Of a DNA stretch of 32,000 bases, positions 3,289 to 32,000 are shown in pieces. Numbering within the stretch: position 1 is the first letter of the stretch; each line of letters opens with the position of its first letter. Source of the stretch: Chloroflexota bacterium (lineage in GTDB: Bacteria > Chloroflexota > Ktedonobacteria > Ktedonobacterales > JACDGC01); NCBI GenBank assembly GCA_021778805.1, contig JAJYBV010000003.1:48542-80541 (forward strand), in the 5' to 3' direction. Under the pieces are notes generated by a model. It searched no databases. It had not been told where the DNA came from and saw only the letters and a list, made by a program, of their open reading frames with translations. A program made the translations under genes and the position numbers.

Positions 3289-3426
3289 AAGATACCTGCA
3301 CACCAGTGAAAAATACCCTATTCTCCCGCATGTATCTGCTTCTAATCTGCATAGCCATGCGCGGGATATTCCGTTTGCGCATATCCTACGTCGTCAAAAT
3401 CGTCGTCAACAAGGAGTTTGTGCCCT

Positions 3427-5822: not shown

Positions 5823-5862
5823 AAAAAAATAAACAAGCAAACAAATAAACAAACAAACAACT

Positions 5863-7179: not shown

Positions 7180-7213
7180 GCGCCGGCCTTTCGAGGCCAG
7201 TGAGGATTGAAAC
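7179..7213 (+). repeat. solitary CRISPR-repeat-like unit C
   Basis: AGCGCCGGCCTTTCGAGGCCAGTGAGGATTGAAAC; starts on the last base of the terL TAA stop. Confidence 0.65.
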
Positions 7214-7220
7214 AAAGAAA

Positions 7221-7604: not shown

Positions 7605-7640
7605 CTGCCTAAACCCAAGCCGAAGAAATGGAGCAACGGG

Positions 7641-11801: not shown

Positions 11802-11828
11802 GAAAGATATACAAGGAGGTTCTTCGGT

Positions 11829-12287: not shown

Positions 12288-12289
12288 CC

Positions 12290-12324
12290 AGCGCCGGCCT
12301 TTCAGGGCCGGTGAGGAATGAAAC
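12290..12324 (+). repeat. solitary CRISPR-repeat-like unit D
   Basis: AGCGCCGGCCTTTCAGGGCCGGTGAGGAATGAAAC; 3 nt after the decoration gene stop, 27 nt before the major capsid ATG. Confidence 0.65.
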
Positions 12325-12350
12325 AAAGAACATACAATACGAGGTGAAAT

Positions 12351-13334: not shown

Positions 13335-13362
13335 GGAGCGAGGCTACAAGGAGTTGCAAAAA

Positions 13363-13653
13363 ATGGAAGAAATATACGTGGAAGAATTATATGCGGCGGC
13401 GCCCATTCGGCACGACGGAAAGATGTTTCATCAGGGCGAGCGGTTCCCAACGGACGATTTGGCTCCGGCAACCATCGCGCAGCTGAAGGCGGTAAAAGCA
13501 ATTGCATCTGCCGTTGAAGTTGCCCCGTATGCGCTGGTCGAACAAACGTATGCGCTGCAAGCCGAAAACACTACGCTGCGCGCCGAGCTTGAAGCGCTGC
13601 GCAGCCAACTGCCACGGCAAACACGCAAACAAAGCGCCGATTCCGCAGAATAA
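13363..13653 (+). CDS. hypothetical small coiled-coil protein
   Basis: ATG 13363 with AAGGAG 9 nt upstream (ORF track 13354..13653). Confidence 0.55.
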   Translation: MEEIYVEELYAAAPIRHDGKMFHQGERFPTDDLAPATIAQLKAVKAIASAVEVAPYALVEQTYALQAENTTLRAELEALRSQLPRQTRKQSADSAE

Positions 13654-13668
13654 CTTGGAGTACCGCAT

Positions 13669-14232
13669 ATGGCAGGATTACCGCCAACAATAACCGACGC
13701 AACCGTTATCTTAACGTTTGGCGCAGGCGGCGTGTATTATGGCTACTGCGAAATTGTGGATGTGCTGTTTGAATTCCCGAACAAAGCGGCGTATGTTACC
13801 CTAACAAACAGCGTTGTGGCGCAGGAAATTACCTACGCCGCGCAAGAATTGCAGCAGCGCATTGATACCGTATATGTTATGCCCTATCTTGGATCCGACG
13901 CTGGCATTACCCTTACCTTGCGCGAAATCAACGCCAAATTGGCGACCGCAAATCTCATCGATAGATATTTTCAAGGGGCAGAGCCAGATATGTCCCCCGC
14001 GGCGGCGGAACGGCGTTCCTATGCCGAACTGCGCATATTAGACATTGTCAACGGCATAGACCGCTGGGGTCCGGAGGTCGGTTCAGACGCCCAGCCGCGC
14101 GGCATGCTGCCGCAATATCAAATTAGCGCCGGCGCTACTATATTGCCGGATCCAAATTCAATGGATCCGCGTGACGCCAAACCGGTGTTCAGCATGGGGC
14201 TTTCGCGCTTCCGGCAAAACGACATCATGTAA
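13669..14232 (+). CDS. head-tail connector candidate (Mu gp36/DUF1320-like, by position)
   Basis: 187 aa, follows the capsid gene, GGAG RBS. Confidence 0.45.
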   Translation: MAGLPPTITDATVILTFGAGGVYYGYCEIVDVLFEFPNKAAYVTLTNSVVAQEITYAAQELQQRIDTVYVMPYLGSDAGITLTLREINAKLATANLIDRYFQGAEPDMSPAAAERRSYAELRILDIVNGIDRWGPEVGSDAQPRGMLPQYQISAGATILPDPNSMDPRDAKPVFSMGLSRFRQNDIM

Positions 14233-14244
14233 AGAGGAAGCAGC

Positions 14245-14460
14245 ATGACGCATCACATCCATTCTGCGCACGCGCACCCATTGCATGGGCACACAACCCG
14301 GCAGGCGCACCCGGCGCATGCGCGGCACGGGCACACACACGCCGGCGCAACACACCATAAACAACCGGGTATGCATGGCCGCGCCGGGCGTGAGGCGCTG
14401 GCGTTCGGCGCCACCATCGATCCGTTTCATCACAAAGGGCAAGCAAAACACCAAGGATAA
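14245..14460 (+). CDS. histidine-rich small protein
   Basis: 71-aa ORF that exactly fills the gap between flanking genes; RBS AGAGGAAG; about one residue in four is His (MTHHIHSAHAHPLHGHTTRQAHPAHARHGHTHAGATHHK...). Confidence 0.5.
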   Translation: MTHHIHSAHAHPLHGHTTRQAHPAHARHGHTHAGATHHKQPGMHGRAGREALAFGATIDPFHHKGQAKHQG

Positions 14461-14463
14461 ACT

Positions 14464-14964
14464 ATGGGACAATATGGATTCGTAACGCTGCAAGTTACCG
14501 GCGCAGCGGCAAAGCGGCGAAAATTTGCCACATGGGGCGAAACCATCCATTCGCTGGCGCCGGCGTGGGAATTGATAGCGGAAGATTTGCGGAATGACGC
14601 GGCAAATCAGTTTACGGCTGAAGGCGGCGTTTTTCGCACGGGCCACTGGGCGCCCCTTCGGCCGGCGACGGTAAAAGACCGGCAGCGCAAAGGTTACCCC
14701 GGCGCGCATCCCATTTTACAGCGCCGCGGCGATTTACTGCAATCGTTAACACAACAAGGCGCCACAGGGCACACCGAAGAAATAACCGCTACATCCTTAA
14801 CCTTTGGAACACGCTACCCAACCGCGGCGTTTCATCAATTTGGCACACGCAAAATGGCGGCGCGGCAAATTTTGGGTATTAGTTGGCAGCGGCAATCGGG
14901 TATTGTACAGCGGCTGAATGAATATATTCAGCAAACGATACGCGGGGCAGGATTGCAAGCATGA
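14464..14964 (+). CDS. virion morphogenesis protein (Mu gpG-like tail completion family)
   Basis: Motifs HWAPLRPATVKDRQRKGYPGAHPILQRRGDLLQSLT and AAFHQFGT are typical of this family. Confidence 0.7.
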   Translation: MGQYGFVTLQVTGAAAKRRKFATWGETIHSLAPAWELIAEDLRNDAANQFTAEGGVFRTGHWAPLRPATVKDRQRKGYPGAHPILQRRGDLLQSLTQQGATGHTEEITATSLTFGTRYPTAAFHQFGTRKMAARQILGISWQRQSGIVQRLNEYIQQTIRGAGLQA

Positions 14965-15449
14965 TAAAAAAACTTGGCGCGGCGGCGCAAACTGCGCTGG
15001 CAAATACGCTGAACACAAACATCAACACGCAAATAGACGCCGTAGCGGCAGCCTGGAATGATGGTATTCCGCTGCCGCATATTACAAACATTTATGCCGG
15101 CTACCGCACCGTCATCGGGGAGTATCCCGCTATTGTGGTGAACGCACAAAAAGGGAAACAAACCGCCAATGGCGCATCCCTTTGGGCTGAAATAGACCAT
15201 ATTGTTGAAATTACCGTCATTGTTCAAGCTGACGACGCGCCAACACTCGACGCGCAAATACAGCGATACTTGGTGGCCATTTGGCAAGTTCTTATGCAAA
15301 ATCAGCAGCTTGACGGCTCACTAAGCGGATTAGCGGGCGTAGACCCGATGGAATATGGCCGCAGCGGCATGTACCCGCTGGAAAAATCGACGCTGCTTAT
15401 GGAAGCCGCTGCCTGGAGTGTAACAGTGCATGTAATTGAAAGCGTATAA
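14961..15449 (+). CDS. neck / tail-terminator candidate (by position)
   Basis: 162 aa, ATGA overlap with the upstream gene. Confidence 0.45.
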   Translation: MIKKLGAAAQTALANTLNTNINTQIDAVAAAWNDGIPLPHITNIYAGYRTVIGEYPAIVVNAQKGKQTANGASLWAEIDHIVEITVIVQADDAPTLDAQIQRYLVAIWQVLMQNQQLDGSLSGLAGVDPMEYGRSGMYPLEKSTLLMEAAAWSVTVHVIESV

Positions 15450-15474
15450 CATCAAAAAATAAGGAGCTGCAGAT

Positions 15475-16734
15475 ATGCCGATAACTGCGATTCGCGAGAA
15501 TCAATATTATATTGGGTTGGGAAAACAAACCGGATGGGGCGTTCCCTCTGCGAGTACAAATATATTTTGGCGCTGGTTAGATGGAACAGACGCCAACCCG
15601 GAAATAAAGATGCAGCAAGAATACCAAGGGGATACGCTGCCATTTGAAACGCTCATCTACAAAGAGAGCCAGCATTGGGTTATTAAGGTAAAAGAATACG
15701 CGCGGCCAATTACCGCCGGCTTTGCCCTGCATGCGCTGCTGGGGTCATATTCCGATTCGTATATGGCGCCCATTGCGCAAACCAGTTTGTCTCTTGGCGT
15801 TGGGCCGGGCGCCACCAGCATAGAAGTTGCCGCAAACTTGGGAAATTTGGGAACCCTTGCTGTCATGCTGGATGCAGGCTTAGTAACTACGGGAACACCC
15901 GAAGTGGTTACCCTGAATTTAGCCAGCGTAACCGGAGCCGGACCCTATACCTACACCTTAAGCACTGGCGCCGTGCAAAATATGCACCTAAGCAACGCCG
16001 CTGTTATCAGCGCGAGCACGCATACCCTTACCCGCCAGCCACTAACGTATGATCCGTATACCATCTTCACATCATTTAACGCCGCCGGCAATCTTGAATT
16101 CGATATCCAAGATTGCGCCTGTGTAGAAATGAAAATTACCGGCGAAAAAGGCAAACCGATAGTGTTGGAGCATACATGGTATGGCTCGCTGGCCACTAAG
16201 AATTCCACCCTGTCATCTCCCTTTTTTGAAGGACAAAATGTGATTGGTTCGCCGGGGTCGCCGTTTCTGTTTTACCAAGGCGCCGCAAATTGGCTGGTAG
16301 ATGGTTTATCGACAGGCAACGCCCTAACGGTAACGAAATTTGAAATCGACATTAAAAATTCTACGGGCGCGGAAGATATGCAAAGTGAAGCGCTGAACCC
16401 CAATTATTTTCTGCCGGGCAACGCAAAAATAACGGGAACCATTTCCGTTTTGTTTCAAAATTACAACCAATACCTTGAAACGTATTTTGGCGGAACAGCC
16501 AATACCCAAGATAGCTATTTAGTGGGTTTAGGCTCTTTCAACGCTAAATTTGTGTCAGACCCCATTGATAGCTTGGCGCTTGGGCTGCCTTACGTAAACT
16601 ATACTGCCGCAAAAATTACCCCCAAACTGGATGGTAAGCCATTGCCGCAAAATTTGGTGTTTACGGCGTCGGCGCCATTGGCAAACGCCGTTCCATTTAC
16701 GGCGACCCTCACCAATACGAATGGGAGATATTAG
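15475..16734 (+). CDS. major tail protein
   Basis: 419 aa, AAGGAG RBS, immediately upstream of the chaperone pair and tape measure gene. Confidence 0.65.
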   Translation: MPITAIRENQYYIGLGKQTGWGVPSASTNIFWRWLDGTDANPEIKMQQEYQGDTLPFETLIYKESQHWVIKVKEYARPITAGFALHALLGSYSDSYMAPIAQTSLSLGVGPGATSIEVAANLGNLGTLAVMLDAGLVTTGTPEVVTLNLASVTGAGPYTYTLSTGAVQNMHLSNAAVISASTHTLTRQPLTYDPYTIFTSFNAAGNLEFDIQDCACVEMKITGEKGKPIVLEHTWYGSLATKNSTLSSPFFEGQNVIGSPGSPFLFYQGAANWLVDGLSTGNALTVTKFEIDIKNSTGAEDMQSEALNPNYFLPGNAKITGTISVLFQNYNQYLETYFGGTANTQDSYLVGLGSFNAKFVSDPIDSLALGLPYVNYTAAKITPKLDGKPLPQNLVFTASAPLANAVPFTATLTNTNGRY

Positions 16735-16739
16735 CGCAC

Positions 16740-17162
16740 ATGGCAGATGGAATAAATTTCGACACAATTGTAGAACAGCGCTATACCTTTACCAAAAATG
16801 GGAAAAGCTATGAGCTGAGCGACGCCATACCCGCGGATGTTATGATTGAAGGTTTGGCGCTGAAAAACGCAATGGACCAAGTAACGCGCGGTGGGCAGCA
16901 GGAAGAACAGCTGCTGAAATTACAAGAGCTGCAGCGGCTATCTACCAACATTGCGTTAAAAATATTTCAGCGCAGTGTGCCGGAGATGACGGCGCTGCTG
17001 CTGGAAGAAACATTTGATATTGATGAGCGGCTGCAAATTATTGCTTTTTTTTTGAGCCACCCTGGCAAAAAGTATGCCATGCGGCAGAACACTTTGAATC
17101 AGAAACCGCAGGCGCCATCGACGCAGCAGATATACCGCAAGCGACCGAATCGGCGCAGCTAG
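16740..17162 (+). CDS. tail assembly chaperone (gpG-like)
   Basis: 140 aa, located between the major tail and tape measure genes. Confidence 0.7.
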   Translation: MADGINFDTIVEQRYTFTKNGKSYELSDAIPADVMIEGLALKNAMDQVTRGGQQEEQLLKLQELQRLSTNIALKIFQRSVPEMTALLLEETFDIDERLQIIAFFLSHPGKKYAMRQNTLNQKPQAPSTQQIYRKRPNRRS

Positions 17163-17365
17163 ATGTAGTAGCCGTCATTGAGGCGATGAGTGAGCATTTT
17201 CACGAACATCACCGCGAAATTGTGGCGTTTAGCTGGAAGCTGTTCTGCGCAAAGTGGGCGCGGCTGTTAGATTGGACTGCAAAAGAGGTAGTTCGGCGCG
17301 CCAATGAGCAGCAGGAACGCGAATTTGAAAAACTGCGCAATGCGCATGAAATGCGAGGTATGTAA
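16740..17365 (+). CDS. tail assembly chaperone frameshift product (gpGT-like), -1 shift on the T-run 17045-17053
   Basis: The -1 frame is open from 17045 to TAA 17363-17365, which abuts the tape measure GTG start. In-frame heptamer T TTT TTT at 17045-17051. Confidence 0.6.
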
Positions 17366-19480
17366 GTGGGCGACGATGTATTTGTAACCATCGGCGGCAA
17401 TAGTATGCCGCTGCAAGACGCCATTGCCGGCGCAGAAGATAGTTTGCGTGGCTTTCAGGAACAGGCAAGCGTTAGCGGTGATACGCTGAATGAAACCGGC
17501 GGCGCGCTGGATGGATTTGGCGGCCGCGTTCAGGGATTGATTGGGCACTTGGGGCAATTAGCCACCCATTTTTTAACCACGTGGGCAGCCATTGAAACAT
17601 GGCAGGGGCTAAACCAAATTACCGGATATGTGCATAATTTTGCCAACGAAATGATCCAGTTAAATATTCAAACTGAAAAAAATGTGAATAGCTGGCAATA
17701 TCTCTTTGGCAGCCAACAAACTGCGCAGCAGCTTTCCAGCTGGACACAGCAGGAAAGCATTCATTTGCCCTTCACCCGGCAAGATTTAATGGGCGCCGTT
17801 TCCGCGCTGGGTTCTAAGCTTTCGGCGCAGCAAGTAGAACAATTTATTCCAACGCTTGGTGATCTTACAGCAACCCTTGGCGCGTCGGCGTTTGGCGGCC
17901 AAGGTCTTTCCCTGCAGCAGGCAGCGCTTGCGGTGATTGATATGATGGAAGGCCGCAGTATGATGCTGAAGCAGGAGATGAAGATAGATCCGGCTCAACT
18001 GGTGCAATATGGTTTAGACGCCACCGTCAGCAAATCCGGCGCCGTCTCCGTACACGACCCGAACACGCTGATTGGCGCGCTAGAGGCGTTTTCAAAACAG
18101 CGCGGGCTTGCCGGGGCAGCAGCGCAAACCAGCACCGATACATTTTGGGGCGCATGGTCGAGTATGGTGGATAGATTCCAAAATTTAGAGCTTGCCACTG
18201 GCAGCAGCCCATTTGCGGTTTTGAAAACCGATTTAAACGCGATTGCCGCGTGGTGGGACGCGCACCAAGGAATGATTACCCAGCTAGCTGATAGCATAGG
18301 AACCACCTTAGCCACTGGCCTGCAGGCCGCCGGAAACGGCGCCCAAGCGTTTGCTGAAGGCTTTGCAGGAATACAAACCAACTCTTCGGTGTTTGGCGCT
18401 CTGGGGGCGTTGGTAAAAAGTATTGGCTCCGACGCCGGCAGCCTATTCAGCGGTTTAGGGCAGGGGCTTACAAACGGCTCTGCAATGCATGGATTAAGCA
18501 CGGTCATAAGCAAAATCGGCGCGATATTAGCAAATCCGCTGGTGAAAAATGGCGTTCAGGCAATAGGGGAACTGCTCGGCTTTTCGCTCGGCGCCGGATT
18601 AAACAGCGCGGCGCTTATCGTTACACTCATTCAATCTGCCCTGCAATGGCTTACTCAGCACGCCGCGGCAACACAAGCGTTTGAGTATTTTTTAATTGCG
18701 TTGGCAGGCGTAATAACAGCCTCCCTTGTGCCGGCGTTTGCGGCATGGGCTATTGGCGCTACGGCGGCGGCAATTGCGCAAGCGGCCGCGCTATTGCCCA
18801 TATTAGCCATTGCCGCCGCTATTGCCGCATTGGCGCTGGGCATAGACGCCTTAGTTACCCATTGGAGCCAAATTTCTGAGTTTTTAGGCGCGCAATGGAA
18901 TCGCTTTACGGCGTGGCTTGCCGGATTGCCCAGCGCTATTTCTACCGGACTGCAAACCATTTGGAACACACTGTATGCATGGATCATCTCATTGGGAACC
19001 GATATGGCGCAATGGGGAGATGATATGATGCAAAACTTTATCAATGGCATTACCGGCGGAGCCGCGCGGCTATGGAATGCGGTTACTGGCGTAGCCGGCC
19101 AAATTGCCAGCGTGTTTCAGCACTCTACCCCGGCGCAAGGGCCACTGGCCGGCGATGATATGTGGATGAGCCATATGATCCAAAGTTTTGAAGATCAGCT
19201 GACGAATGGAATTCCCATCATTGCGCGCGCGTCGGTATCGGTAGGTTCTGCCATCCAAAGCGGCATTGTTGGGCAGCAAAGCAGCGCCGGCGTGGCGTCA
19301 ACCTACAGCAGCGCCTACACCACAACCTATGGCGCTACCGCAAATACGCTGCATGTATATGCGCAGAACGACACGCACATAGAACGAGTGGTGCGCAGTG
19401 TTTTGGCAGATACAAACCGGCAAGGAAATTATATGCTGCGCCGCGCCGGCGGCTTTGCAAATTTTGGGGGAATTGGATGA
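17366..19480 (+). CDS. tape measure protein
   Basis: 704 aa, GTG start after GAGGT, Ala/Gly/Leu-rich with hydrophobic central segment, canonical position. Confidence 0.85.
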   Translation: MGDDVFVTIGGNSMPLQDAIAGAEDSLRGFQEQASVSGDTLNETGGALDGFGGRVQGLIGHLGQLATHFLTTWAAIETWQGLNQITGYVHNFANEMIQLNIQTEKNVNSWQYLFGSQQTAQQLSSWTQQESIHLPFTRQDLMGAVSALGSKLSAQQVEQFIPTLGDLTATLGASAFGGQGLSLQQAALAVIDMMEGRSMMLKQEMKIDPAQLVQYGLDATVSKSGAVSVHDPNTLIGALEAFSKQRGLAGAAAQTSTDTFWGAWSSMVDRFQNLELATGSSPFAVLKTDLNAIAAWWDAHQGMITQLADSIGTTLATGLQAAGNGAQAFAEGFAGIQTNSSVFGALGALVKSIGSDAGSLFSGLGQGLTNGSAMHGLSTVISKIGAILANPLVKNGVQAIGELLGFSLGAGLNSAALIVTLIQSALQWLTQHAAATQAFEYFLIALAGVITASLVPAFAAWAIGATAAAIAQAAALLPILAIAAAIAALALGIDALVTHWSQISEFLGAQWNRFTAWLAGLPSAISTGLQTIWNTLYAWIISLGTDMAQWGDDMMQNFINGITGGAARLWNAVTGVAGQIASVFQHSTPAQGPLAGDDMWMSHMIQSFEDQLTNGIPIIARASVSVGSAIQSGIVGQQSSAGVASTYSSAYTTTYGATANTLHVYAQNDTHIERVVRSVLADTNRQGNYMLRRAGGFANFGGIG

Positions 19481-22071
19481 CGTATTTCACGACGTTGCAG
19501 GTGTGCAGTTTTAACGCTATCACCCAAACGTACACCACGGTGTTTGACCTGAATAATCTAACATCGACCTTTTTAACGGCTACCAAGATGGATCAGCCGC
19601 AAAAAGCCATTGCGCGCGGCTTTAATATGCGCACGCCGGGTGAGTATATATCGAAACAGCAGTATAAAAATCGGCACATACAGGCCAGCGTAAACATTCG
19701 GGGCGCAAACACAACCGCGCTGCTGGCAACCGTGCGCAGCCTGATTGCGGCGATAGAGCAGCCGCCCTATTATTTAAAAGTGCAGCTGCCTTCCGGCGCA
19801 CAATATAGCTACATTCAAGTGCGCGCCGTAACCTACACCATTCCATCCGACACAATGGCCATATTGGCCGGCGCGCTGCATACAATAAGCATAGATTTTG
19901 AGTGCGATCCCTTCTTTTTAGGTGATTGGGTAACATTGCAAAATGTATTGATGAACCCCGGTTTTGAAGCGCCGGCCACAAACCCCGTTACCGTTTTTCT
20001 GGACGCGCTGAATAACGCCGATGCGTATACGGTTGCGCTGGGCACAGCGCCAAGCGTTTCAGCCAACGCTATGACGATACCAGTAAGCACGTGCTTAACC
20101 TTTGGCTCACCAGCGTGGCGCAGCGGCATTTGGACGTTTTTATTTACCGCCGCAAGCGGAATGGATATGGTGTTTGGCGCTAATTTTACGAATATCTCTA
20201 ATTTGCTTGGTGTTACCCTTACCCAAACTTCGTTTAATGTTACACAAATTATCAATGGTATTAATGACACCGCGCAAACTGCCGCTATCAGCCTGACGGC
20301 CGGCGCCGAATATTGGCTGCAAGTATACGAGTTTCCGGTGTTTAATGGGGCGCCGGCGCAAATTACCGCAACACTATACACCAATAACAGCGGCAATTTA
20401 GGAACGCAAGTGGCAACGATTACCGGAATGAGCTTTATAGCGGCGTATAGCGGCCTTTCGTGCTTGTGGAACCGCGCTGGCTCTCAAACACTCGTTATAG
20501 GCGCCACTGGTGTTTCTGGCAGTGTGCAGCTGTTTGGCCCCGGCGGATGGTGGTGGAATGGCGGATCGGGCAGCGTAGGAATCTGCGCCGGCGCCTGGGA
20601 ACAAACAGTTGCCAATACATTTTCCGGCGGCCCGGTTAGCTCCTTAGGCGCATTTCGGATAGAGCTGCCGGCGTCGGGCATGTGGATGTGCACCCTAACC
20701 AACGCAAACCTTGCGTCGGCAGCGCAAATTGCGGCAACAGCCTCGCCGGTTGCCCCGAATATGGAATATTCCCTATCGTTTTGGATGCTGGCGCCGAATG
20801 TTGGCAATAATTGTTATATCGAATCGGTGGTGAATTTGTACGATATCAGCGGCAACTATATTTCCAGTATCGTCTTAACAGAACAATTGGGGAAAACTGC
20901 GGCATGGCGCCAAACCGTAGCGTCGTATACAACCCCTTCAAACGCCTATTATTGCGCCTTCCAGATTGAAATGTTTGATAGCGTATCAGCTGAATCACCC
21001 AGCGCAACCATTTGGATAGATAATGGGCAGATGTATGCTGGCGCGGCAAACAGCGTGCCCTATTGCGAGTTGCGTTTTCCGGCTGGCCCCGCGCAGCTGC
21101 TGGTTAGCGGTCTGCTAGGAGATGTTGCCGCGCCGGGCACATTGGCTATTGGCGGTTTGCCGGCAGGCGGTTCGCTGCAGCCCAATAGTATTTTTACGGC
21201 GTATGTCGGGCGGCGGCAATATGCAGCGCAGCAAACGCGCATTATTACCCCTGCGCTGTGTACATCGCAAGATGGTTTTTTGCAGCAGCAAATGGCGTAT
21301 CCATCTGCATTGGGCGGCTATATCGCGGCGTTTGCCGGCGCGTCGTCTAATTATTCCGCAGTATTCGTTCCGGCTTCCTTGCAGGAATACACGGGCACAT
21401 ATCATCTGTTTTGCCGCGCGCTGATGCAAGATTCAACCTATAGCACCCGAACCCTGCAAGGGGGCGCCTATGAGGCAAAGAATTATTGGGGCGGCTCGCC
21501 GCAGCAGATTTTGGGATTGGCGCAAACCGCGGCGATCACCCCATTTACCGCGCAAAATACCTGGCAGATTATTGATTGCGGCGTTCTCACGCTGCCGCCA
21601 TTTCCAAAATCTGACCAAATTCAGCTTACGCACGTAGAGGGACTGCCATATGTGCAATCGACGAATGCGCAATTTGGCATGTGGGTGGATTGGCTGGCGC
21701 TGCTGCCGGTGGAAACCGAATTGATTGCGCTGACGTTTCAAAATCCTGCATCCAGCAGCGCCGTGAGCGGGTGGGTGTGGCTGTATGTGGATGGCTCGCA
21801 GCCTACGCAAAAAAGTGTGAGCTGGAGCATAGAGGTTACTGCCGCGCCGAATATGCAATTAAGCGGCGGCGGCCCGGGAACCATGCAGCAAACCAGCCCC
21901 AGTGTTATTGCCACCGCAGATGAATCGCTGCTGCTAGACCCCACCATTACGACGCCAAGTGGTATCAGTGGGGTAAATCAATATATTGCGTTTATCAGCG
22001 ACAGCGCCGCGAATGTATTGAATGTTGTTTGCGAGCTGGGATACGCGCCGCGCTATCTTTACCCGAGGTGA
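19477..22071 (+). CDS. large distal tail / tail-tip structural protein with carbohydrate-binding-like middle region
   Basis: 864 aa, ATGA overlap with the tape measure stop. Confidence 0.6.
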   Translation: MTYFTTLQVCSFNAITQTYTTVFDLNNLTSTFLTATKMDQPQKAIARGFNMRTPGEYISKQQYKNRHIQASVNIRGANTTALLATVRSLIAAIEQPPYYLKVQLPSGAQYSYIQVRAVTYTIPSDTMAILAGALHTISIDFECDPFFLGDWVTLQNVLMNPGFEAPATNPVTVFLDALNNADAYTVALGTAPSVSANAMTIPVSTCLTFGSPAWRSGIWTFLFTAASGMDMVFGANFTNISNLLGVTLTQTSFNVTQIINGINDTAQTAAISLTAGAEYWLQVYEFPVFNGAPAQITATLYTNNSGNLGTQVATITGMSFIAAYSGLSCLWNRAGSQTLVIGATGVSGSVQLFGPGGWWWNGGSGSVGICAGAWEQTVANTFSGGPVSSLGAFRIELPASGMWMCTLTNANLASAAQIAATASPVAPNMEYSLSFWMLAPNVGNNCYIESVVNLYDISGNYISSIVLTEQLGKTAAWRQTVASYTTPSNAYYCAFQIEMFDSVSAESPSATIWIDNGQMYAGAANSVPYCELRFPAGPAQLLVSGLLGDVAAPGTLAIGGLPAGGSLQPNSIFTAYVGRRQYAAQQTRIITPALCTSQDGFLQQQMAYPSALGGYIAAFAGASSNYSAVFVPASLQEYTGTYHLFCRALMQDSTYSTRTLQGGAYEAKNYWGGSPQQILGLAQTAAITPFTAQNTWQIIDCGVLTLPPFPKSDQIQLTHVEGLPYVQSTNAQFGMWVDWLALLPVETELIALTFQNPASSSAVSGWVWLYVDGSQPTQKSVSWSIEVTAAPNMQLSGGGPGTMQQTSPSVIATADESLLLDPTITTPSGISGVNQYIAFISDSAANVLNVVCELGYAPRYLYPR

Positions 22072-22078
22072 TGGATGT

Positions 22079-23551
22079 ATGCTGAAAAGCGGATTAAGTG
22101 TGTATTGCTATTCGTTAAGCAACCCGGTGCGCGCCATAAATTATACCCAGTATGTTACAAACCTGTCATTCACCACGGTAGCGCCGGGCGGCTTTGGGCA
22201 GGCAACCTGCACGATATTGCTGCCTGATAGCCGGGTATTTCATCCGGAACTTCAGATTTTTGCGCGCATGGCCATTATGGCGCAGCGCACGTGTGTTTTT
22301 ATCGGTGAAATTGCGGAGGCGCCCCTACTTAATTCAGATACGGAAGAGGGCATTTCTATTACCGCATTGGGGTTAGGCGCTACCTTGCGCGACGATCCGG
22401 AAGATGTAAGCTATTCGGCGCAAACCCCACTGCAAATTGTGAACGACCAATTTACGCGCCGCGCCGCATATTTGGTGATTGATCCGGATACGTCTGAGGT
22501 ATTTCCAGATCAGCCCAGCGCAACCTTCTCACCGGCGTATACAGGGCGCAATATGGAAGAGGTCATTGCGGATGTAGCCATTTTGGCTGGTGTATATAGT
22601 TGGGGAACCTGGGCGCACCCCACGCATGTAGACGCTTTAGGCTTTCCAACCGGGCAATTGACGGTGCGGAAAACCGATCGCGAAACCGTTGCGTATCAGG
22701 CAAGCATATCTGGCGGGGATAGTACGCGATACACCATTTCGCCGAGCATGGAACGCGCATACAATGTGATAGCAATAACGTTTAACGATGCTAGCCAAAC
22801 ACCGCCGGTTGGGACGGCGGTATATACGGATCCGCGGCTGAATGCGGATGGCAGCCAAGGCACAGCGCCATTTCGGCGGCGAAAATACAGCCGCGATATG
22901 ACGACGGTTTCAATGGTTTCAATGGCGCAGGCGCAGGCGATTGCGAACGCCTATGGCGCGCAGATGCAAAATATTTCAAATAAAGTGGAACTTACGCTGC
23001 GCAACCTGCAAAACGCCGATGGCGCGCCGATACCGCTTTGGATGGCGGCCGCAGATAAAAATATTGCGGTGCCAGAGTTAACGCCGCGCGGCGCTGCAAT
23101 TTCTGCAAGCTATACGCCGGGAACAAATCTGTTTTATATTGTGCAAACCACGTATACCGAAACCGCAACGGATATGAACGTGGTATTGGAATGCGATAAC
23201 TATATTGATACGGCAAACATGCAAATAGCGCGCTTGCAATTGGCGAGCGATGCGCTGGCGCGCAGTAAAACAACAACCGGCGCAGTGCAAACGTCGGGCG
23301 CGCCAGAAATTGGGTATTGCGGCCTATCGCTGCCGAGCATGGGCGCGGGGCAATCGGCCAGTATTGTTGTGCATTTTAAGACCATAATGAAGCATGTTCC
23401 AACCTCTATTACGCTGAACGCGGTGCAAACGGCAAATGTTTCCACAAGTAGCGCAAACAGCATGACAGCGTATGGATTCGTTCTAACGCTTACGGCGTTG
23501 GCAGCCGGCGCAATGACGTATTACGCAACATATACCACGGTAGGGAATTAG
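22079..23551 (+). CDS. tail-tip / receptor-binding structural protein
   Basis: ATG 22079 with GAGGTG 8 nt upstream (ORF track 22022..23551); 490 aa; last structural gene before lysis. Confidence 0.55.
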   Translation: MLKSGLSVYCYSLSNPVRAINYTQYVTNLSFTTVAPGGFGQATCTILLPDSRVFHPELQIFARMAIMAQRTCVFIGEIAEAPLLNSDTEEGISITALGLGATLRDDPEDVSYSAQTPLQIVNDQFTRRAAYLVIDPDTSEVFPDQPSATFSPAYTGRNMEEVIADVAILAGVYSWGTWAHPTHVDALGFPTGQLTVRKTDRETVAYQASISGGDSTRYTISPSMERAYNVIAITFNDASQTPPVGTAVYTDPRLNADGSQGTAPFRRRKYSRDMTTVSMVSMAQAQAIANAYGAQMQNISNKVELTLRNLQNADGAPIPLWMAAADKNIAVPELTPRGAAISASYTPGTNLFYIVQTTYTETATDMNVVLECDNYIDTANMQIARLQLASDALARSKTTTGAVQTSGAPEIGYCGLSLPSMGAGQSASIVVHFKTIMKHVPTSITLNAVQTANVSTSSANSMTAYGFVLTLTALAAGAMTYYATYTTVGN

Positions 23552-23554
23552 CAG

Positions 23555-23908
23555 ATGACGGGAACCCGAACGTATAACGCGGCGCCGCGGCTGCAAACGA
23601 TAGAATCGCAATTAGAAACCAATGCGTCGCAAATAGCGTCGTTAACAGCGCAGGTAAGTAGGTTAACCGATATTATGGAGAAATTAACGACAACGGCAGC
23701 GGCGCACGCCACGCATATAGACAACTTGCGCGAAGAAAACCGACGGATATCCCAAGCGCTCGATTCGTTAAATGGCGTCGCGGCGCAGCGCCAAAACCAA
23801 ACCAACGGACAATTATTTCAGGCGTCTATTTCGGGGGCGCAAATGCTGATGACGGTGGTTTGGATTGTGATAGGGTATTTATTAAGCTGGGCGCTGACTC
23901 AAAAATAG
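23555..23908 (+). CDS. XhlA-type holin-associated membrane protein
   Basis: 117 aa, N-terminal coiled coil and single C-terminal TM segment (MLMTVVWIVIGYLLSWAL), directly upstream of the lysin. Confidence 0.55.
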   Translation: MTGTRTYNAAPRLQTIESQLETNASQIASLTAQVSRLTDIMEKLTTTAAAHATHIDNLREENRRISQALDSLNGVAAQRQNQTNGQLFQASISGAQMLMTVVWIVIGYLLSWALTQK

Positions 23909-23929
23909 CACAAAGGATACATACACATC

Positions 23930-24694
23930 ATGGATGACGTTAACAAAGAAAAATGCGGCGAGGTGGCAGGCCGCGCGGCGCTGATTATTGGGAATGAATG
24001 CGAATTTTGGGGCATACAAGAATTTGTTGCGGCGGCGCGGTGGGCAAAGGCGCATGGGATAGACACGATCAACCCAAAGCGCGCCAATGGAGCGGATCGT
24101 TGGTATAAGAAGGCGGCGCAGTTAGCAGAAGAATACCGCGCGGTAACAGCCGAAGGGGTGGGCTATATTCCATTTGGTTATGTTTACACGCTGCCGCGAT
24201 GCTATGGCATGGGGTATATAGAGGCGCAGGCAGAGCTGATGATAGAGATGCAGCGCACAATTGGCGCCCTGCAGCCCGATACTATTGGCTGGGTTATGGC
24301 AGATATGGAGGTGGAAATGAATGGCAGATTAGATTGCGCGGAGTGTTTTACGCAATTATTGGCGCCGGGCCGCGATTTGCTGTTTGTAACCAGTTGGGCC
24401 GATCCGCGAGAGCAAAATTGGCTGGGTGTGCTGAACATTTTGCGGAACTGTTTGAACTGCTTTCTGCCGCAAGCGTATAACGATTGGCTGGAAAGCAGAG
24501 AATATGCGGAGTTGCCGCAAGATATGTGCATACAAACGATGATTGACCTGACGCAGGAGTTTGGGGCAAATCAACAAATAGCTATTGCACAAGCGGCAAA
24601 GGCGCATGGGCAAACAACAATATGGATGTGGGAATATCAGGCGGCGCTGCGAAACCCCGCGTTGGTAGATGAGCTAGTGAGGGAAATGCTATAA
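23930..24694 (+). CDS. putative endolysin (glycoside-hydrolase-like; family uncertain)
   Basis: 254 aa, last phage gene after the holin-like gene, AAGGA RBS; assignment mostly positional. Confidence 0.45.
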   Translation: MDDVNKEKCGEVAGRAALIIGNECEFWGIQEFVAAARWAKAHGIDTINPKRANGADRWYKKAAQLAEEYRAVTAEGVGYIPFGYVYTLPRCYGMGYIEAQAELMIEMQRTIGALQPDTIGWVMADMEVEMNGRLDCAECFTQLLAPGRDLLFVTSWADPREQNWLGVLNILRNCLNCFLPQAYNDWLESREYAELPQDMCIQTMIDLTQEFGANQQIAIAQAAKAHGQTTIWMWEYQAALRNPALVDELVREML

Positions 24695-24697
24695 AAT

Positions 24698-24730
24698 AGG
24701 TGGTTGTTTCTATAATGGAAACAACCACCT
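24698..24730. terminator. perfect 13-bp hairpin, candidate bidirectional terminator at the phage-array junction
   Basis: AGGTGGTTGTTTC-TATAATG-GAAACAACCACCT; followed by TTTC on the plus strand and by ATTTTAT on the minus strand; its last 2 nt are the first 2 nt of CRISPR repeat 1. Confidence 0.55.
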
Positions 24731-27700
24731 TTCAGTATCCTCAACGGATCGAATGGCAATGAAACATATGCAACGATTTATTGCAGTTCAACCCTTTGTC
24801 ACCTTTCAGTATCCTCAACGGATCGAATGGCAATGAAACGGCTATTTTCAGCACCAGTCACCAGTCCAGGCGCTACCTTTCAGTATCCTCAACGGATCGA
24901 ATGGCAATGAAACCGCAAGGCTTAGCCTTGTGTAACCCGCAACAGGCAACCTTTCAGTATCCTCAACGGATCGAATGGCAATGAAACAGCGATTGCTGGC
25001 GCTGACCGAATTTACCAAGCAAATTCTCCTTTCAGTATCCTCAACGGATCGAATGGCAATGAAACTGCGCGATTGCGCAAGCGCAGGAATACCGGGACGA
25101 TCCTTTCAGTATCCTCAACGGATCGAATGGCAATGAAACGTCATCGTCACAAATAATCCATACAACCAATTATCCGCCTTTCAGTATCCTCAACGGATCG
25201 AATGGCAATGAAACACTCCGCAATTATGGAGAAACGTTTTTAATCCGTCACTTTCAGTATCCTCAACGGATCGAATGGCAATGAAACATAGTCTGACACA
25301 ACGCTGCGCAATCGCGCAAGCGCCTTTCAGTATCCTCAACGGATCGAATGGCAATGAAACTGCGGCAGACTTTGCCGCAAACGGCTACCCTGAAACTTTC
25401 AGTATCCTCAACGGATCGAATGGCAATGAAACATTTCCGAATCAGAATTGTCCTGCTCCTGCACCGCCTTTCAGTATCCTCAACGGATCGAATGGCAATG
25501 AAACTAACGACAATGGCAAAATATGATGTAACTTTCAAATGCTTTCAGTATCCTCAACGGATCGAATGGCAATGAAACTCACGCGCTGCGCGCGGCGCGG
25601 CGTGATCGGCACAATCTTTCAGTATCCTCAACGGATCGAATGGCAATGAAACGTTACAGCGCGTTACATCGCGATACATCGCGTTACACTTTCAGTATCC
25701 TCAACGGATCGAATGGCAATGAAACCGACGCGAGACATTCAAATCTACGACAACATCCACAGCTTTCAGTATCCTCAACGGATCGAATGGCAATGAAACA
25801 CCCTATTTGTATGAGCAATTTGGGAAATACGAACCTTTCAGTATCCTCAACGGATCGAATGGCAATGAAACACCACTGCTCTGAAAATATCACAGATTAT
25901 TCTTTCAGTATCCTCAACGGATCGAATGGCAATGAAACATATAGTTTCTCCCCGCGAATGAGAAACGAACGACCTTTCAGTATCCTCAACGGATCGAATG
26001 GCAATGAAACATATGACCCCAACGACGTGGTCGCGGCGCGGCCCCCCTTTCAGTATCCTCAACGGATCGAATGGCAATGAAACCTCGAACCAGATGGCTA
26101 CGTAGTCATCCGGATTTTTGCTTTCAGTATCCTCAACGGATCGAATGGCAATGAAACTTACATCAGTAATCTAAATAATCCCTATCCCCTCGCCGCTTTC
26201 AGTATCCTCAACGGATCGAATGGCAATGAAACAACGAAAGTAAATACGTTGCCTGATTCAACGCTTCGATCTTTCAGTATCCTCAACGGATCGAATGGCA
26301 ATGAAACATCAACAGTATTTCGTTCTGTCTGTAGGCGTCGAGCTTTCAGTATCCTCAACGGATCGAATGGCAATGAAACTTTCATGTATCCGTTGATGAT
26401 GTGTTGCACGCTGCTCTTTCAGTATCCTCAACGGATCGAATGGCAATGAAACTTAGTCCAGTCATTGACGAATGCCGCAAAAACAGAGATCCTTTCAGTA
26501 TCCTCAACGGATCGAATGGCAATGAAACGCAGCATGGGAAATAGTAACTATGTCATTTTTTTTTTCCTTTCAGTATCCTCAACGGATCGAATGGCAATGA
26601 AACAGCATTCATCCCTCCATATCCATCACTGCTGCGAATATCTTTCAGTATCCTCAACGGATCGAATGGCAATGAAACACTAATGCCAGTAAACCGGCTG
26701 ATTGACGCAATACCTTTCAGTATCCTCAACGGATCGAATGGCAATGAAACAAATTGTTACCGTTACGAGTCCCGCGACGGGATCATCTTTCAGTATCCTC
26801 AACGGATCGAATGGCAATGAAACCCACCGTAGAAAGCCGCGCGGGATACTAACTCACACACCTTTCAGTATCCTCAACGGATCGAATGGCAATGAAACAT
26901 AGATGTCATATACGTATTCGCTATATTGACGCCACTTTCAGTATCCTCAACGGATCGAATGGCAATGAAACTCATCTGACCTCATCGCCATGGATTGTTA
27001 ATTCCACGACCTTTCAGTATCCTCAACGGATCGAATGGCAATGAAACATCGGGAATCTGCTACGATCCGCGGTATGGATCCAGCTTTCAGTATCCTCAAC
27101 GGATCGAATGGCAATGAAACGCCGGTACTATCTGCTGCATACGTAAAATTGCTAAACTTTCAGTATCCTCAACGGATCGAATGGCAATGAAACAACAAAT
27201 ATCGATAATTTACAACTAGTCCTGCAATCCTTTCAGTATCCTCAACGGATCGAATGGCAATGAAACTGACCAGCGCCATTTCCGAGATACCCACGAATCC
27301 GGTCTTTCAGTATCCTCAACGGATCGAATGGCAATGAAACAGTAACAACTTGTGCAATCCTGCATAGGTGTACGTAGCTTTCAGTATCCTCAACGGATCG
27401 AATGGCAATGAAACCTGCCGAGCAGCTGTACCACGAATACCTGCAGAAGTCTTTCAGTATCCTCAACGGATCGAATGGCAATGAAACGTAGAGCACCTTT
27501 AGAACAAAGGTGCGTTAGGATAAACTTTCAGTATCCTCAACGGATCGAATGGCAATGAAACCAGATTTTCCCGCATTAGTCCCTACGTACACCTATGCCT
27601 TTCAGTATCCTCAACGGATCGAATGGCAATGAAACGTGTCGTTATGCTTGCCATGTTAGCCTCCAGTGTGATCTTTCAGTATCCTCAACGGATCGAATGG

Positions 27701-30700
27701 CAATGAAACTTCATGGGGTATGAACGGAATGCACCGTTCATTACCACTTTCAGTATCCTCAACGGATCGAATGGCAATGAAACTTGCACTATCCAGCTGC
27801 CACATGCACCGCATGAGCTCTTTCAGTATCCTCAACGGATCGAATGGCAATGAAACACGTACACTTATGCAATCCTGCATAAGTTGTTACTAGCTTTCAG
27901 TATCCTCAACGGATCGAATGGCAATGAAACAGTGTCGTTATGCTTGCCATGTTAGCCTCCAGTGTGATCTTTCAGTATCCTCAACGGATCGAATGGCAAT
28001 GAAACAGCTTTTGCGGTGAGTATGGGATCGTGATACTCAACTTTCAGTATCCTCAACGGATCGAATGGCAATGAAACGTACACTTATGCAGGATTGCACA
28101 AGTTGTTAGTAGCTTTCAGTATCCTCAACGGATCGAATGGCAATGAAACTCCAGATGTCAGCCTACAGCTCAATACATTAAAGAACTTTCAGTATCCTCA
28201 ACGGATCGAATGGCAATGAAACCAGCCTCAGACTGAGACGCTGTTTGACCTTCTGAATCTTTCAGTATCCTCAACGGATCGAATGGCAATGAAACAAAAT
28301 CGCTCAAATTTGCATTCTGGCGCCAACGATTTCTTTCAGTATCCTCAACGGATCGAATGGCAATGAAACTGAACAGCCTGTCGAGCACTATTTAAATACG
28401 CCAGATCTTTCAGTATCCTCAACGGATCGAATGGCAATGAAACTTCGCCATTTATCCTAACGCACCTAGGCTAGAAAATCCTTTCAGTATCCTCAACGGA
28501 TCGAATGGCAATGAAACATACACCAAGCATAGCTACTTCTTATGCTGAAGAATCTTTCAGTATCCTCAACGGATCGAATGGCAATGAAACATTGCAGCAG
28601 ATTGCATCCTAGTCATTCTAGGCATTTTCCTTTCAGTATCCTCAACGGATCGAATGGCAATGAAACCGGAATCGATTCCGATATAACGCCAGCCAGTCAT
28701 AGACTTTCAGTATCCTCAACGGATCGAATGGCAATGAAACCGAAGCGTAAAACACGTTCAGAACATCTCCATACGGAACTTTCAGTATCCTCAACGGATC
28801 GAATGGCAATGAAACAAGATTGCCAGCTGTATACGCGCTTACCGCTGACGCCTTTCAGTATCCTCAACGGATCGAATGGCAATGAAACTAGAATGACTAG
28901 GATGCAATCTGCTGCAATGCAGCCTTTCAGTATCCTCAACGGATCGAATGGCAATGAAACGTATACGCAGCTGAAATCATCGACTGCCCAAGTTATGCTT
29001 TCAGTATCCTCAACGGATCGAATGGCAATGAAACCTACTAACAACTTATGCAATCCAGCATAAGTGTATGAACTTTCAGTATCCTCAACGGATCGAATGG
29101 CAATGAAACGATATGCTACATGCGCAAACACGGCTGCGACCGAAGCTTTCAGTATCCTCAACGGATCGAATGGCAATGAAACGCAACTGTAGCATTGTAG
29201 CGCGAAAAGTTTATTCAGCCTTTCAGTATCCTCAACGGATCGAATGGCAATGAAACCCATTCGACGGATGATTGCAGATGCTGAAACGCATCCTTTCAGT
29301 ATCCTCAACGGATCGAATGGCAATGAAACGAATACTGCGGGTGAGCTGTCCGATACACCTGCCATCTTTCAGTATCCTCAACGGATCGAATGGCAATGAA
29401 ACAATGGGACGAATCTGCTCAACATGACGAACAGCATTCCTTTCAGTATCCTCAACGGATCGAATGGCAATGAAACCCAAATGACGCGCTTTCTATGGCA
29501 TCATTGGAGGCTTAGCTTTCAGTATCCTCAACGGATCGAATGGCAATGAAACATCTGGCGATTTCTAAATCGCCAGAAAATTGTTCCTCTTTCAGTATCC
29601 TCAACGGATCGAATGGCAATGAAACTCGCTGAACGCGCAGGGTTTATTGTTCTATTAAAAACTTTCAGTATCCTCAACGGATCGAATGGCAATGAAACAG
29701 CTATGGGAACACCTCCACCGTCAAACCCGCCACCCTTTCAGTATCCTCAACGGATCGAATGGCAATGAAACTTGACAAGGTCGTTGCTGATGTTCGGCGT
29801 CAATTGCCTTTCAGTATCCTCAACGGATCGAATGGCAATGAAACGAAGCGATTCGGCTCCTGTATTTTGCGCTGGAGCATGACTTTCAGTATCCTCAACG
29901 GATCGAATGGCAATGAAACTTCCCGCAGTTACTGTTCCTTGTGTAGCGCGCTGAACCTTTCAGTATCCTCAACGGATCGAATGGCAATGAAACGGTTAAT
30001 GCAACACTTCCAGCCGGAAGGGTGATACTAGCTTTCAGTATCCTCAACGGATCGAATGGCAATGAAACCATTCTCCGTTACAGATAGAGCCTGCTGAACA
30101 CATTCCTTTCAGTATCCTCAACGGATCGAATGGCAATGAAACTTTTGAGGAGGCATTAAAAATGCCTAGAAGAATGACGCTTTCAGTATCCTCAACGGAT
30201 CGAATGGCAATGAAACTTGGAATCCACTGACAGGTTGTGATAAGATCAGCACACTTTCAGTATCCTCAACGGATCGAATGGCAATGAAACACACGTATTG
30301 ATAGAAGTAAAGATAGCGTCAGTTGCCCTTTCAGTATCCTCAACGGATCGAATGGCAATGAAACCATTGATATAACTCCTTAAAATTCGTTGTAATGCAG
30401 CTTTCAGTATCCTCAACGGATCGAATGGCAATGAAACTGACGCGATTGCCGGTGATCACCTCGCCGAGAAATCTTTCAGTATCCTCAACGGATCGAATGG
30501 CAATGAAACTAGCGCTGCTGGAGTGCATCGCTGATCGTGAATGTGCTTTCAGTATCCTCAACGGATCGAATGGCAATGAAACGTCTTCGGGACGCAGCGA
30601 ATCTGTTGCGGATCGTGTCTTTCAGTATCCTCAACGGATCGAATGGCAATGAAACACTCGATCCGCTCCTGCAACGGGACACCACCGAAGTCTTTCAGTA

Positions 30701-32000
30701 TCCTCAACGGATCGAATGGCAATGAAACGTGAACCATGCACCAGCAGATGAAAAATGCCGGATCTTTCAGTATCCTCAACGGATCGAATGGCAATGAAAC
30801 TGCAACGAAACGCGGCGCAGTGGAAGAACTATTAGTGCTTTCAGTATCCTCAACGGATCGAATGGCAATGAAACACGATTTCGCGAACGCATCCATCTCA
30901 CATCAGCAGACTTTCAGTATCCTCAACGGATCGAATGGCAATGAAACTTATGATCTCACCATCCTGATTCTCTCGCTAGAGACTTTCAGTATCCTCAACG
31001 GATCGAATGGCAATGAAACAACATGGAGAAACTGTCCGGCGCAACTGCGCAGAAACTTTCAGTATCCTCAACGGATCGAATGGCAATGAAACCTGGGCGC
31101 TTCAACTGCGGGTCACGCGCCTCAATGAGCTTTCAGTATCCTCAACGGATCGAATGGCAATGAAACAAATAGCGCACGCCGTCTCACATAGTTGCCCCCG
31201 CGAACTTTCAGTATCCTCAACGGATCGAATGGCAATGAAACGAACCAGAGAAAATGCACACGAAAATACAAACTAATCCTTTCAGTATCCTCAACGGATC
31301 GAATGGCAATGAAACATAAACGATTCATTATCGAGCGCGAATCGCGATTTTATCCTTTCAGTATCCTCAACGGATCGAATGGCAATGAAACTTTGCAGCG
31401 AAATTTGCCCGATACCGGCGCCGGGTCTTTCAGTATCCTCAACGGATCGAATGGCAATGAAACGTATTTCCGCCGCGAGCCAGGTTTTTCCGGCGCCGGT
31501 CCTTTCAGTATCCTCAACGGATCGAATGGCAATGAAACCTATGAATATGAGATATACATCTCACAAAAAAATTTCTTTCAGTATCCTCAACGGATCGAAT
31601 GGCAATGAAACCGACGTGCTCGCGCGGAGGGGGGTTGCGCCGGAAGGCTTTCAGTATCCTCAACGGATCGAATGGCAATGAAACATCGCGCGCCGCCGGC
31701 GGCGCGATTTTTACCACGAGCCTTTCAGTATCCTCAACGGATCGAATGGCAATGAAACGTGTTCGCGACACCCGTTTGCACCCGCGCCCCGGCCTTTCAG
31801 TATCCTCAACGGATCGAATGGCAATGAAACGCCCATTTGATATTCATTGCAGCATTTTCGTCTCTGTCTTTCAGTATCCTCAACGGATCGAATGGCAATG
31901 AAACCCAACAGCATTCCCAGTCCTGGGGAGTGCTTGACAACTTTCAGTATCCTCAACGGATCGAATGGCAATGAAACCGCAGTGCGCTCCGCAAATACCC
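24729..32000 (-). CRISPR. CRISPR array, 99 identical 37-nt repeats and 98 complete spacers (30-41 nt, mostly 35-38), continuing past the window end; class 1-like repeat; minus-strand transcription inferred with modest confidence
   Basis: Repeat CTTTCAGTATCCTCAACGGATCGAATGGCAATGAAAC counted by hand at 24729, 24803, 24877 ... 31941. All ORF-track proteins here are repeat translations (SILNGSNGNET, LSVSSTDRMAMK, FQYPQRIEWQ). Orientation comes from PAM-side anchoring of overlapping spacers, see findings. Confidence 0.98.

Follow-up and report, generated by a model that had tools for sequence, protein, structure and literature searches.

The stretch of DNA analysed here (hereafter the window) comprises 32,000 nucleotides (nt) of contig JAJYBV010000003.1 from the Chloroflexota assembly GCA_021778805.1, and it holds the genes of a prophage followed by a long CRISPR array. 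The array occupies positions 24729..31977 on the minus strand and consists of 99 identical 37-nt direct repeats with 98 complete, unique spacers of similar length (30–41 nt) in between; the repeat reads GTTTCATTGCCATTCGATCCGTTGAGGATACTGAAAG on the minus strand and CTTTCAGTATCCTCAACGGATCGAATGGCAATGAAAC on the plus strand. Spacer 13 (25653..25688, minus strand; GTTACAGCGCGTTACATCGCGATACATCGCGTTACA) is itself a repeat with a period of 10 nt according to Tandem Repeats Finder (TRF), and it resembles iterons that lie within the replication initiator gene (rep) of the prophage (3427..4398, plus strand). On balance, we favour the explanation that spacer 13 stems from the origin of a phage in the resident's replisome-organizer-like initiator family, and that the array is most likely carried by the prophage.

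On the minus strand, spacer 13 is built of the units TGTAACGCGA TGTATCGCGA TGTAACGCGC TGTAAC, and window positions 3583-3618 (TGTAACGCCATGAAACACCCTGTAACACCCTGTAAC) divide into TGTAACGCCA TGAAACACCC TGTAACACCC TGTAAC. The reverse complement of the spacer is identical to this site at 28 of 36 positions. Positions 1-8 are intact and the mismatches fall at positions 9, 13, 15, 17, 19, 20, 27 and 29, five of the eight within positions 13-20. The triplet CCT at 3580..3582 (plus strand) stands directly 5' of this partial protospacer, where it fits a CCN protospacer-adjacent motif (PAM) and is at the same time the Pro codon of a VTPCN motif. The second iteron cluster of the same gene (3850-3885) matches spacer 13 at 25/36. 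A first-pass annotation made from the letters of the window alone had already reported these values, together with the position and 10-nt period of the spacer, and all of them were reproduced here.

When all 98 spacers were compared with both strands of window positions 1-24700, spacer 13 gave the top match; the runner-up reached 25/35 and most top matches lay near 22/36. Spacer 45, at 25/35 against an aminotransferase gene of the host, scored inside the range of the random controls and was set aside as chance. A thousand shuffles of spacer 13 reached 25 at most. A fairer null is given by random sequences that are periodic over 10 nt and as imperfect as the spacer; of these, 4 in 3000 reached 28 or more (about 0.0013). 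The similarity is therefore better than that of other 10-bp periodic sequences, a doubt that the first-pass annotation had itself raised; it lies beyond chance and needs a biological explanation. The other spacers show no DNA or six-frame peptide similarity to the resident phage and its lysogeny module above shuffled controls, and a BLAST search of the spacers against all loci fetched for comparison (L numbers below) returned nothing beyond spacer 13 and a match of spacer 97 in locus L012.

The match falls in a gene that has the layout of an in-gene replication origin. Its product resembles a replication initiation protein in PHROG, albeit weakly (E = 2.7e-5), and also a DnaD-like loader, and it has 892 homologues at E <= 1e-3 in a representative library; among cultured phages the Rep protein has no match, and the portal protein reaches only about 30% identity. 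Both iteron clusters lie inside the open reading frame (ORF). Cluster 1 (3574..3619, plus strand) contains 4.6 units of 10 nt by TRF, GTAACACCCT-like and coding EVTPCNAMKHPVTPCNN; it is an insertion absent from most homologues, and it holds the 28/36 site. Cluster 2 (3850..3888, plus strand) reads AGTAACACCA TGAAACGCGA TGAAACGCCA AAAAACGCA, codes for SNTMKRDETPKNA and sits at the family-conserved origin position. It is adjoined by an AT-rich stretch (3889..3925, plus strand) with a 15-nt tandem repeat coding EIRIDKIRIDNN, a candidate DNA-unwinding element. Thus three or more phased direct repeats and an adjoining AT-rich element lie together within the initiator ORF.

This arrangement recurs throughout the family. 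At about residue 110-150, dozens of homologues carry the motif 'VTPCNA.KRDVTPCNA', followed by an acidic 'EIRIDKIR'-type stretch; in the DNA, a run of TG(T/A)AACGC(G/C)N units is followed directly by the AT-rich stretch that reads 'IRIDKIR' in protein and is of the ATAGATA type. Equivalent iteron clusters are present in at least 30 homologues. The lambda ori lies within gene O and has the same in-gene iteron layout. In SPP1, oriL lies inside gene 38, which encodes the replisome organizer G38P, and comprises initiator-bound direct repeats with an adjoining AT-rich unwinding element (PMC6316719). The resident gene is like SPP1 oriL in having repeats in the initiator's own gene next to an AT-rich element, with initiator binding at the repeats and origin firing there predicted from the sequence. 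It differs in its protein family, which has weak Phage_rep_org_N similarity, and in having two clusters, one of them a lineage-specific insertion. The earlier description of spacer 13 as iteron-type is thereby upheld, and its target corresponds to the origin-type repeats within the replication initiator gene of the resident phage.

Spacer 13 also carries a coding signature. On the strand that reads TGTAAC it has a single open frame, TGT AAC GCG ATG TAT CGC GAT GTA ACG CGC TGT AAC, which translates to CNAMYRDVTRCN and fits the family motif CNAM.RDVT.CN. A period of 10 nt puts successive units in codon phases 1, 2 and 3, and in phase 2 a perfect TGTAAC would be read as TG-TAA-C, that is, with a stop codon. 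The only deviant unit of spacer 13 is precisely the second, TGTATC, read ATG TAT; the aligned second unit of the resident is TGAAAC, read ATG AAA. In our reading, TGTATC and TGAAAC each solve the coding problem of this phase, by different substitutions. Of the eight mismatches, moreover, those at positions 9 and 27 fall on third codon positions and are synonymous. Given the deviant unit and the synonymous mismatches, a Rep-family gene is a more probable place for the protospacer than non-coding repeats. A chimeric peptide query built around the spacer-encoded peptide returned no candidates.

How close was the source phage to the resident? Three members of the Rep family (L053, L054 and L088) match spacer 13 at 31/36 each and a fourth (L060) at 30/36, and these better-matching members are only 40-45% identical to the resident in protein. 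L053 and L054 had been selected because no peptides among the first 106 homologues matched better, and L088 because it scored 9/12 in the set extended to 205. At the peptide level, three of these 205 family proteins score 9/12, at the canonical cluster 2 position, and the resident scores 8/12 at cluster 1, tied with three others. The PAM and seed can be accounted for in the same way: CCN followed by seed positions 1-5, 7 and 8 corresponds to ACN CCN TGT AAC GCN, which codes for TPCNA of the family motif (V)TPCNA, and the combination occurs in 5 of 34 other family loci. Since this motif is common to distant members, the 28/36 score, the CCT and the intact first 8 nt reflect conservation at the level of the family. 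The available sequences thus support a shared origin and initiator family, and a close relative that the resident has escaped is unproven. The first-pass annotation had taken the array to hold a memory of the origin of a relative of the prophage; the iteron and initiator family stand, but 28/36 does not demonstrate a close relative, given members at 40-45% identity that score 30-31/36. The intact PAM and first 8 nt, which it found compatible with an escaped or primed target, are no specific evidence for one, as both follow from the family motif.

Several findings nonetheless weigh against a source defined by this family alone. The window's Rep protein has no Pfam hit of its own at E <= 0.01 and only 8 of 48 aligned homologues match PF09681 (Phage_rep_org_N; best E-value 1.4e-5); it is therefore described here as replisome-organizer-like and is not counted among the members of PF09681. 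The first-pass annotation had proposed to compare all spacers with this genome and with viromes; the comparison with the window placed spacer 13 first, and no exact spacer 13 protospacer was found in IMG/VR, the JGI metagenomes or the GTDB genomes. Furthermore, the 32 unselected family loci from IMG/VR score 18-30, and L060, at 30, is the sole locus to reach 28 or more, which places the resident in the upper tail. The source may, given this score, have been somewhat closer kin to the resident.

The upper-tail score is one of the points that speak for a spacer taken from a close relative of the resident prophage, with the resident afterwards gaining PAM-distal mismatches by escape or self-avoidance. 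The resident match is also non-random and the best in the window, its PAM and seed are kept, and virus-borne arrays with mutated orthologous sites in the carrier are documented (PMC6858448). We nevertheless consider a close relative unlikely: members of about 40% identity match better, the best peptide matches lie at the canonical cluster 2 of other members and not at the resident's cluster 1, the PAM and seed belong to the family motif, and none of the other spacers resembles the resident phage.

A further finding that counts against a source within the family is that GTAWCGCGN 10-bp tandem repeats occur in 28 contigs, mostly without a Rep homologue. These came from a search with a degenerate periodic pattern, which returned 21 contigs in the JGI metagenomes and 7 in the GTDB genomes, none of them exact; in IMG/VR, neither exact spacer 13 nor the degenerate pattern had a match. 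A source outside the family is possible, and the repeats, which match the spacer at 25-32/36, would then favour convergence or chance between 10-bp periodic sequences, spacer 13 then coming from some tandem repeat outside an origin, or from an unrelated replicon, with only the GTAAC core in common. However, these matches were chosen by a pattern derived from the spacer itself, and random periodic sequences reach 28/36 in about 0.13% of trials. The single deviant unit that removes an in-frame TAA and the translation into the family motif also speak against convergence, which we regard as very unlikely. As an observation in its own right, the loci recovered by the pattern (L025-L052; 21 metagenome contigs and 7 genomes of 7 phyla) carry 10-bp tandem repeats of GTAACGCGN or GTATCGCGN, which suggests that unrelated replicons repeatedly employ or generate this unit.

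The second part of the explanation concerns the carrier of the array. At 3240..3289 (minus strand) lies a left attachment-site (att) core that equals the last 50 nt of tRNA-Arg(GCG): it reaches from the anticodon stem to the 3' end and lacks the 5' half. ARAGORN called no tRNA at these positions. The left flank of the integration site is a host gene for a class IV aminotransferase (2045..3016, plus strand), and the same gene precedes tRNA-Arg and asparaginase in L009 and L012. In these sister strains, which carry neither prophage nor array, the order is aminotransferase, intact tRNA-Arg, asparaginase, DUF4012. In the phage-carrying metagenome-assembled genomes (MAGs), asparaginase and an intact tRNA-Arg are found on other contigs, on which the 3' end of tRNA-Arg abuts the gene for a 398-aa tyrosine integrase; in L016 and L013 the identical 50-nt core lies within the intact tRNA beside the integrase. 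One such contig, L020, continues from the integrase with an HTH_17 excisionase, RecT, a cro-like gene, a cI-like repressor, an Mrr-like nuclease and one exact copy of the CRISPR repeat. This solitary repeat (L020 174-210) has the orientation of the window's repeats and is followed by AT-rich DNA with a promoter-like site on the minus strand.

A 22-nt motif, ACGTCGTCAAAATCGTCGTCAA, at 3388..3409 (plus strand) of the window recurs exactly, and with unchanged orientation, in L020 and L016, where it stands at a distance of about 70 nt from the right att site; the copies flanking both att sites are candidate arm sites of the integrase. No second att core or tRNA is present inside the window, and none lies between the tail genes and the array. 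The simplest map would run from the att core through rep, the structural and tail genes, the CRISPR array, a gap and leader-like DNA to the Mrr-like nuclease, cI, cro, RecT, the excisionase (xis), the integrase (int) and tRNA-Arg. Because the att sites bracket phage and array and the strains with an empty site lack the array, we conclude from this arrangement that the array probably lies within the prophage, which would then span at least 38 kb. The first-pass annotation had offered both a phage-borne array, in a setting of inter-phage competition, and a host-borne one; the bracketing att sites favour the former.

The degenerate copies of the arm motif deserve mention here as well. In the prophage-free strains, L012 6154-6175 and L009 7661-7682 hold the 22-nt motif with 2-3 mismatches, about 90 nt from the 3' end of tRNA-Arg, perhaps as the remnant of an integration in the past. 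The intergenic DNA between aminotransferase and tRNA in these strains cannot be aligned with window 3081-3238. L017 2586-3303 contains 138 nt of the integrase gene beside tRNA-Arg, followed by tRNA-Gly, and appears to be a deleted-prophage variant that coexists with the lysogen in the same sample set.

The placement of the array inside the prophage has its own weak points. The array and L020 are not physically joined, as one assembly gap separates the array from the lysogeny module. We infer the join, and further spacers, or even CRISPR-associated (cas) genes, may lie in the gap. Nothing among the sequences fetched for comparison matches the 173 nt in front of the L020 repeat, and L020 1-520 could represent a phage variant with a solitary repeat, the leader end of the array or an assembly chimera. 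The cas genes, which would give the CRISPR subtype, were not found on the contigs, which all end in the array, or on L020. The missing join and the 173 unexplained nt would be in keeping with a host chromosomal array beside which the prophage integrated, so that spacer 13 represents ordinary host immunity and the resident has escaped or is tolerated; great length, too, is typical of cellular arrays. Yet the sister strains have aminotransferase, tRNA-Arg and asparaginase contiguous without an array, an att core lies to the left of the phage with an intact tRNA and integrase elsewhere in the same MAGs, the interval between tail genes and array measures only 34 nt with no att copy in it, and a correctly oriented repeat sits on the integrase contig. 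A host array is, in our judgement, quite unlikely, and we continue with a prophage-borne array.

Which strand of the array is transcribed, and with which PAM, can be read from several other sites. Spacer 97 (31831..31867, minus strand) is the only spacer for which an exact target was found: a 37/37 protospacer at L012 14108-14144, preceded by CCG on its 5' side in the minus-strand orientation. This protospacer has no flanking repeats and lies at the contig end of the prophage-free sister strain, where the DNA is variable, about 8 kb away from tRNA-Arg. For spacer 8, the overlap with spacer 5 gives a PAM of CCT, and the homologue of spacer 13 likewise has CCT; spacer 36 has TCC, off by one. A consistent motif thus adjoins these sites, and a 5'-CCW/CCN PAM is known from bacterial type I-B systems (PMC4556805).

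A hairpin at 24698..24730 (minus strand), with a 13-bp stem and a T-rich tail, occupies the 34 nt between the last phage ORF and repeat 1, which leaves no room for a leader; it is likely the terminator at the trailer end. In L020, a promoter-like site on the minus strand (TTGCGA, 17 nt, TATAAT; 10/12, with an extended -10) is aimed into the solitary repeat. The side of the PAM, the terminator at the left end and this promoter-like site together indicate that the array is probably transcribed on the minus strand. The CCN PAM and minus-strand reading proposed at first pass, deduced then from the window alone, hence gain independent support from spacers 97 and 8, the terminator and the L020 site.

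Several spacers share their targets. Spacers 36, 39, 43, 46 and 59 (window 27341-29072) fall on one locus, on both strands and in sequence variants, between which the central 10 nt (GCAGGATTGC or GCAATCCTGC) are inverted. Spacers 40/44, 53/57 and 5/8 overlap likewise, spacer 44 being spacer 40 plus 1 nt. Multiple spacers on one varying locus form a pattern typical of primed acquisition from a diversifying target.

What could the prophage gain from such a spacer? In the mechanism that we propose, the origin of this family would lie inside the initiator gene as iterons of 10 bp that share a (T)GTAAC core, are read as VTPCNA/KRDVT and are followed by the AT-rich stretch. DNA binding and protein coding would both constrain the iterons and so preserve them across very distant members. 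Many iteron units end in CCN and would thereby supply the PAM, the spacer starting in register with a unit; the proposed source phage would have carried TGTAACGCGATGTATCGCGATGTAACGCGCTGTAAC within its Rep-family gene, with CCN in front. The prophage would use a far-side leader to transcribe the array on the minus strand, and Cas proteins of a type I-like system, encoded by the host or in the gap, would load the CRISPR RNAs (crRNAs); the use of host Cas is a step that we infer. The crRNA of spacer 13 would recognise CCN plus TGTAACGC... in the origin of an incoming phage, leading to the destruction of phages with a TGTAACGCG-type origin. Escape should be costly for the targeted phages because the same bases serve initiator binding and coding.

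The carrier's own iterons keep the PAM and seed and have eight PAM-distal mismatches, and should for that reason escape cleavage. In type I systems, such distal mismatches should prevent full R-loop formation and cleavage. That no spacer derives from the resident phage would fit a lack of self-priming. A more far-reaching proposal, which we put forward only tentatively, is that a temperate siphophage of roughly 40 kb spends at least 7.3 kb on a cas-less array run by host Cas proteins, with the spacer against the origin iterons of a very large phage replication family providing broad superinfection exclusion and its own origin having drifted from the consensus on the PAM-distal side. A bolder variant would have the partial self-match used for non-cutting binding of crRNA 13 to the phage's own origin, as a control that damps replication in the lysogen. 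The PAM and intact seed on the carrier's own origin, and the persistence of the spacer near the old (trailer) end of the array, are circumstantial points for such a use. The match is fully explained by family conservation, however, and from what is generally known of type I systems the five mismatches in positions 13-20 would hinder a stable R-loop; we regard this regulatory use as highly improbable.

Prophage-borne arrays that rely on host Cas proteins are known from Clostridioides difficile type I-B, where arrays located in prophages and without cas genes of their own are expressed, use host Cas and have a 5'-CCW PAM (PMC4173771, PMC4556805). The array described here is similar in its probable location inside a prophage and its 5' CCN-type PAM; the C. 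difficile spacers target other phages. It differs in its host, which is uncultured and Chloroflexota-like with the nearest named homologues in Ktedonobacterales at about 50% identity, in the unrelated sequence of its 37-nt repeat and in its size, at least 99 repeats that take up about 7.3 kb of the prophage's 38 kb or more.

The Sulfolobales viruses SPV1 and SPV2 carry mini-CRISPR arrays with a leader and no cas genes, with spacers against other viruses, and have been proposed to practise heterotypic superinfection exclusion, a mutated orthologous site in the carrier preventing self-targeting (Medvedeva et al. 2019, PMC6858448). Here, too, the array is probably carried by the virus; the resident site has 8 mismatches to spacer 13, a similarity at the level of the family. 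The SPV1/SPV2 mini-arrays, in contrast, have 1-2 spacers and target very close relatives reciprocally (PMC6858448), whereas only one of the 98 spacers here is related to the carrier, and at the family level only. A comparable phage-encoded, sequence-specific weapon against the origin iterons of a competing mobile element is reported for phage ICP1, in its CRISPR-Cas system and the nuclease Odn directed at PLE (PMC8263062). ICP1 reportedly has all of a type I-F system, or else a dedicated nuclease, and attacks a satellite; in the window only an array is seen, and it would be directed at the origin of another phage. The host phylum, the size of the array (at least 99 repeats) and a self-related spacer on a family-conserved origin motif set the present case apart from these closest precedents.

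If the array is truly phage-borne, it would be an unusually large case of a virus using host CRISPR machinery against viruses, in a poorly studied phylum. The DNA of in-gene origins would be kept even between very distant phages, since bases that bind the initiator must also code for protein, and this family-wide conservation makes them attractive broad-range targets. It also follows that a partial spacer match in such DNA is no evidence of kinship or escape, and annotation pipelines need family-wide controls for periodic, family-conserved motifs before self-targeting or escape is claimed. Iteron conservation accounts for most of the spacer 13 similarity, real as it is; of greater interest is the very large and probably phage-borne array.

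Further features of the array complete the description. It reaches past the contig end of the window sequence, an independent assembly (L001) carries the same array, and every contig with the array ends within it. At its right end, independent assemblies stop at the identical base, which fits heterogeneity at an actively acquiring, leader-proximal end. The repeat sequence has no matches in the GTDB genomes or IMG/VR, only chance fragments in phage and plasmid collections, and no CRISPR-DR family in Rfam. The MAG contig L002 (11249-12686) contains repeats 1-7 and breaks off 13 nt into spacer 7, continuing into unrelated DNA with a 200-aa ORF; its tail matches nothing fetched, and an insertion, a deletion variant or a misassembly may lie behind the break. 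Towards the end of the array that is presumed newest, spacers of about numbers 87-96 (window 31000-32000) have a GC content of 0.49 compared with about 0.45, which hints at a different, high-GC target element. GC-rich palindromes occur among the spacers, for example in spacers 94-96 and in spacer 12 (25579-25615).

Between rep and the array lies a siphovirus-type structural module (5863..24694, plus strand) with large terminase, portal, protease, scaffold, major head protein, neck, tape measure protein, tail and unknown ORFs. An (AAAC)n/16-nt tandem repeat is found at 5819-5860, directly upstream of the large terminase gene, and acidic 24-nt coding repeats lie at 11086-11208 inside the ORF 9783-11801 of the protease/scaffold region.

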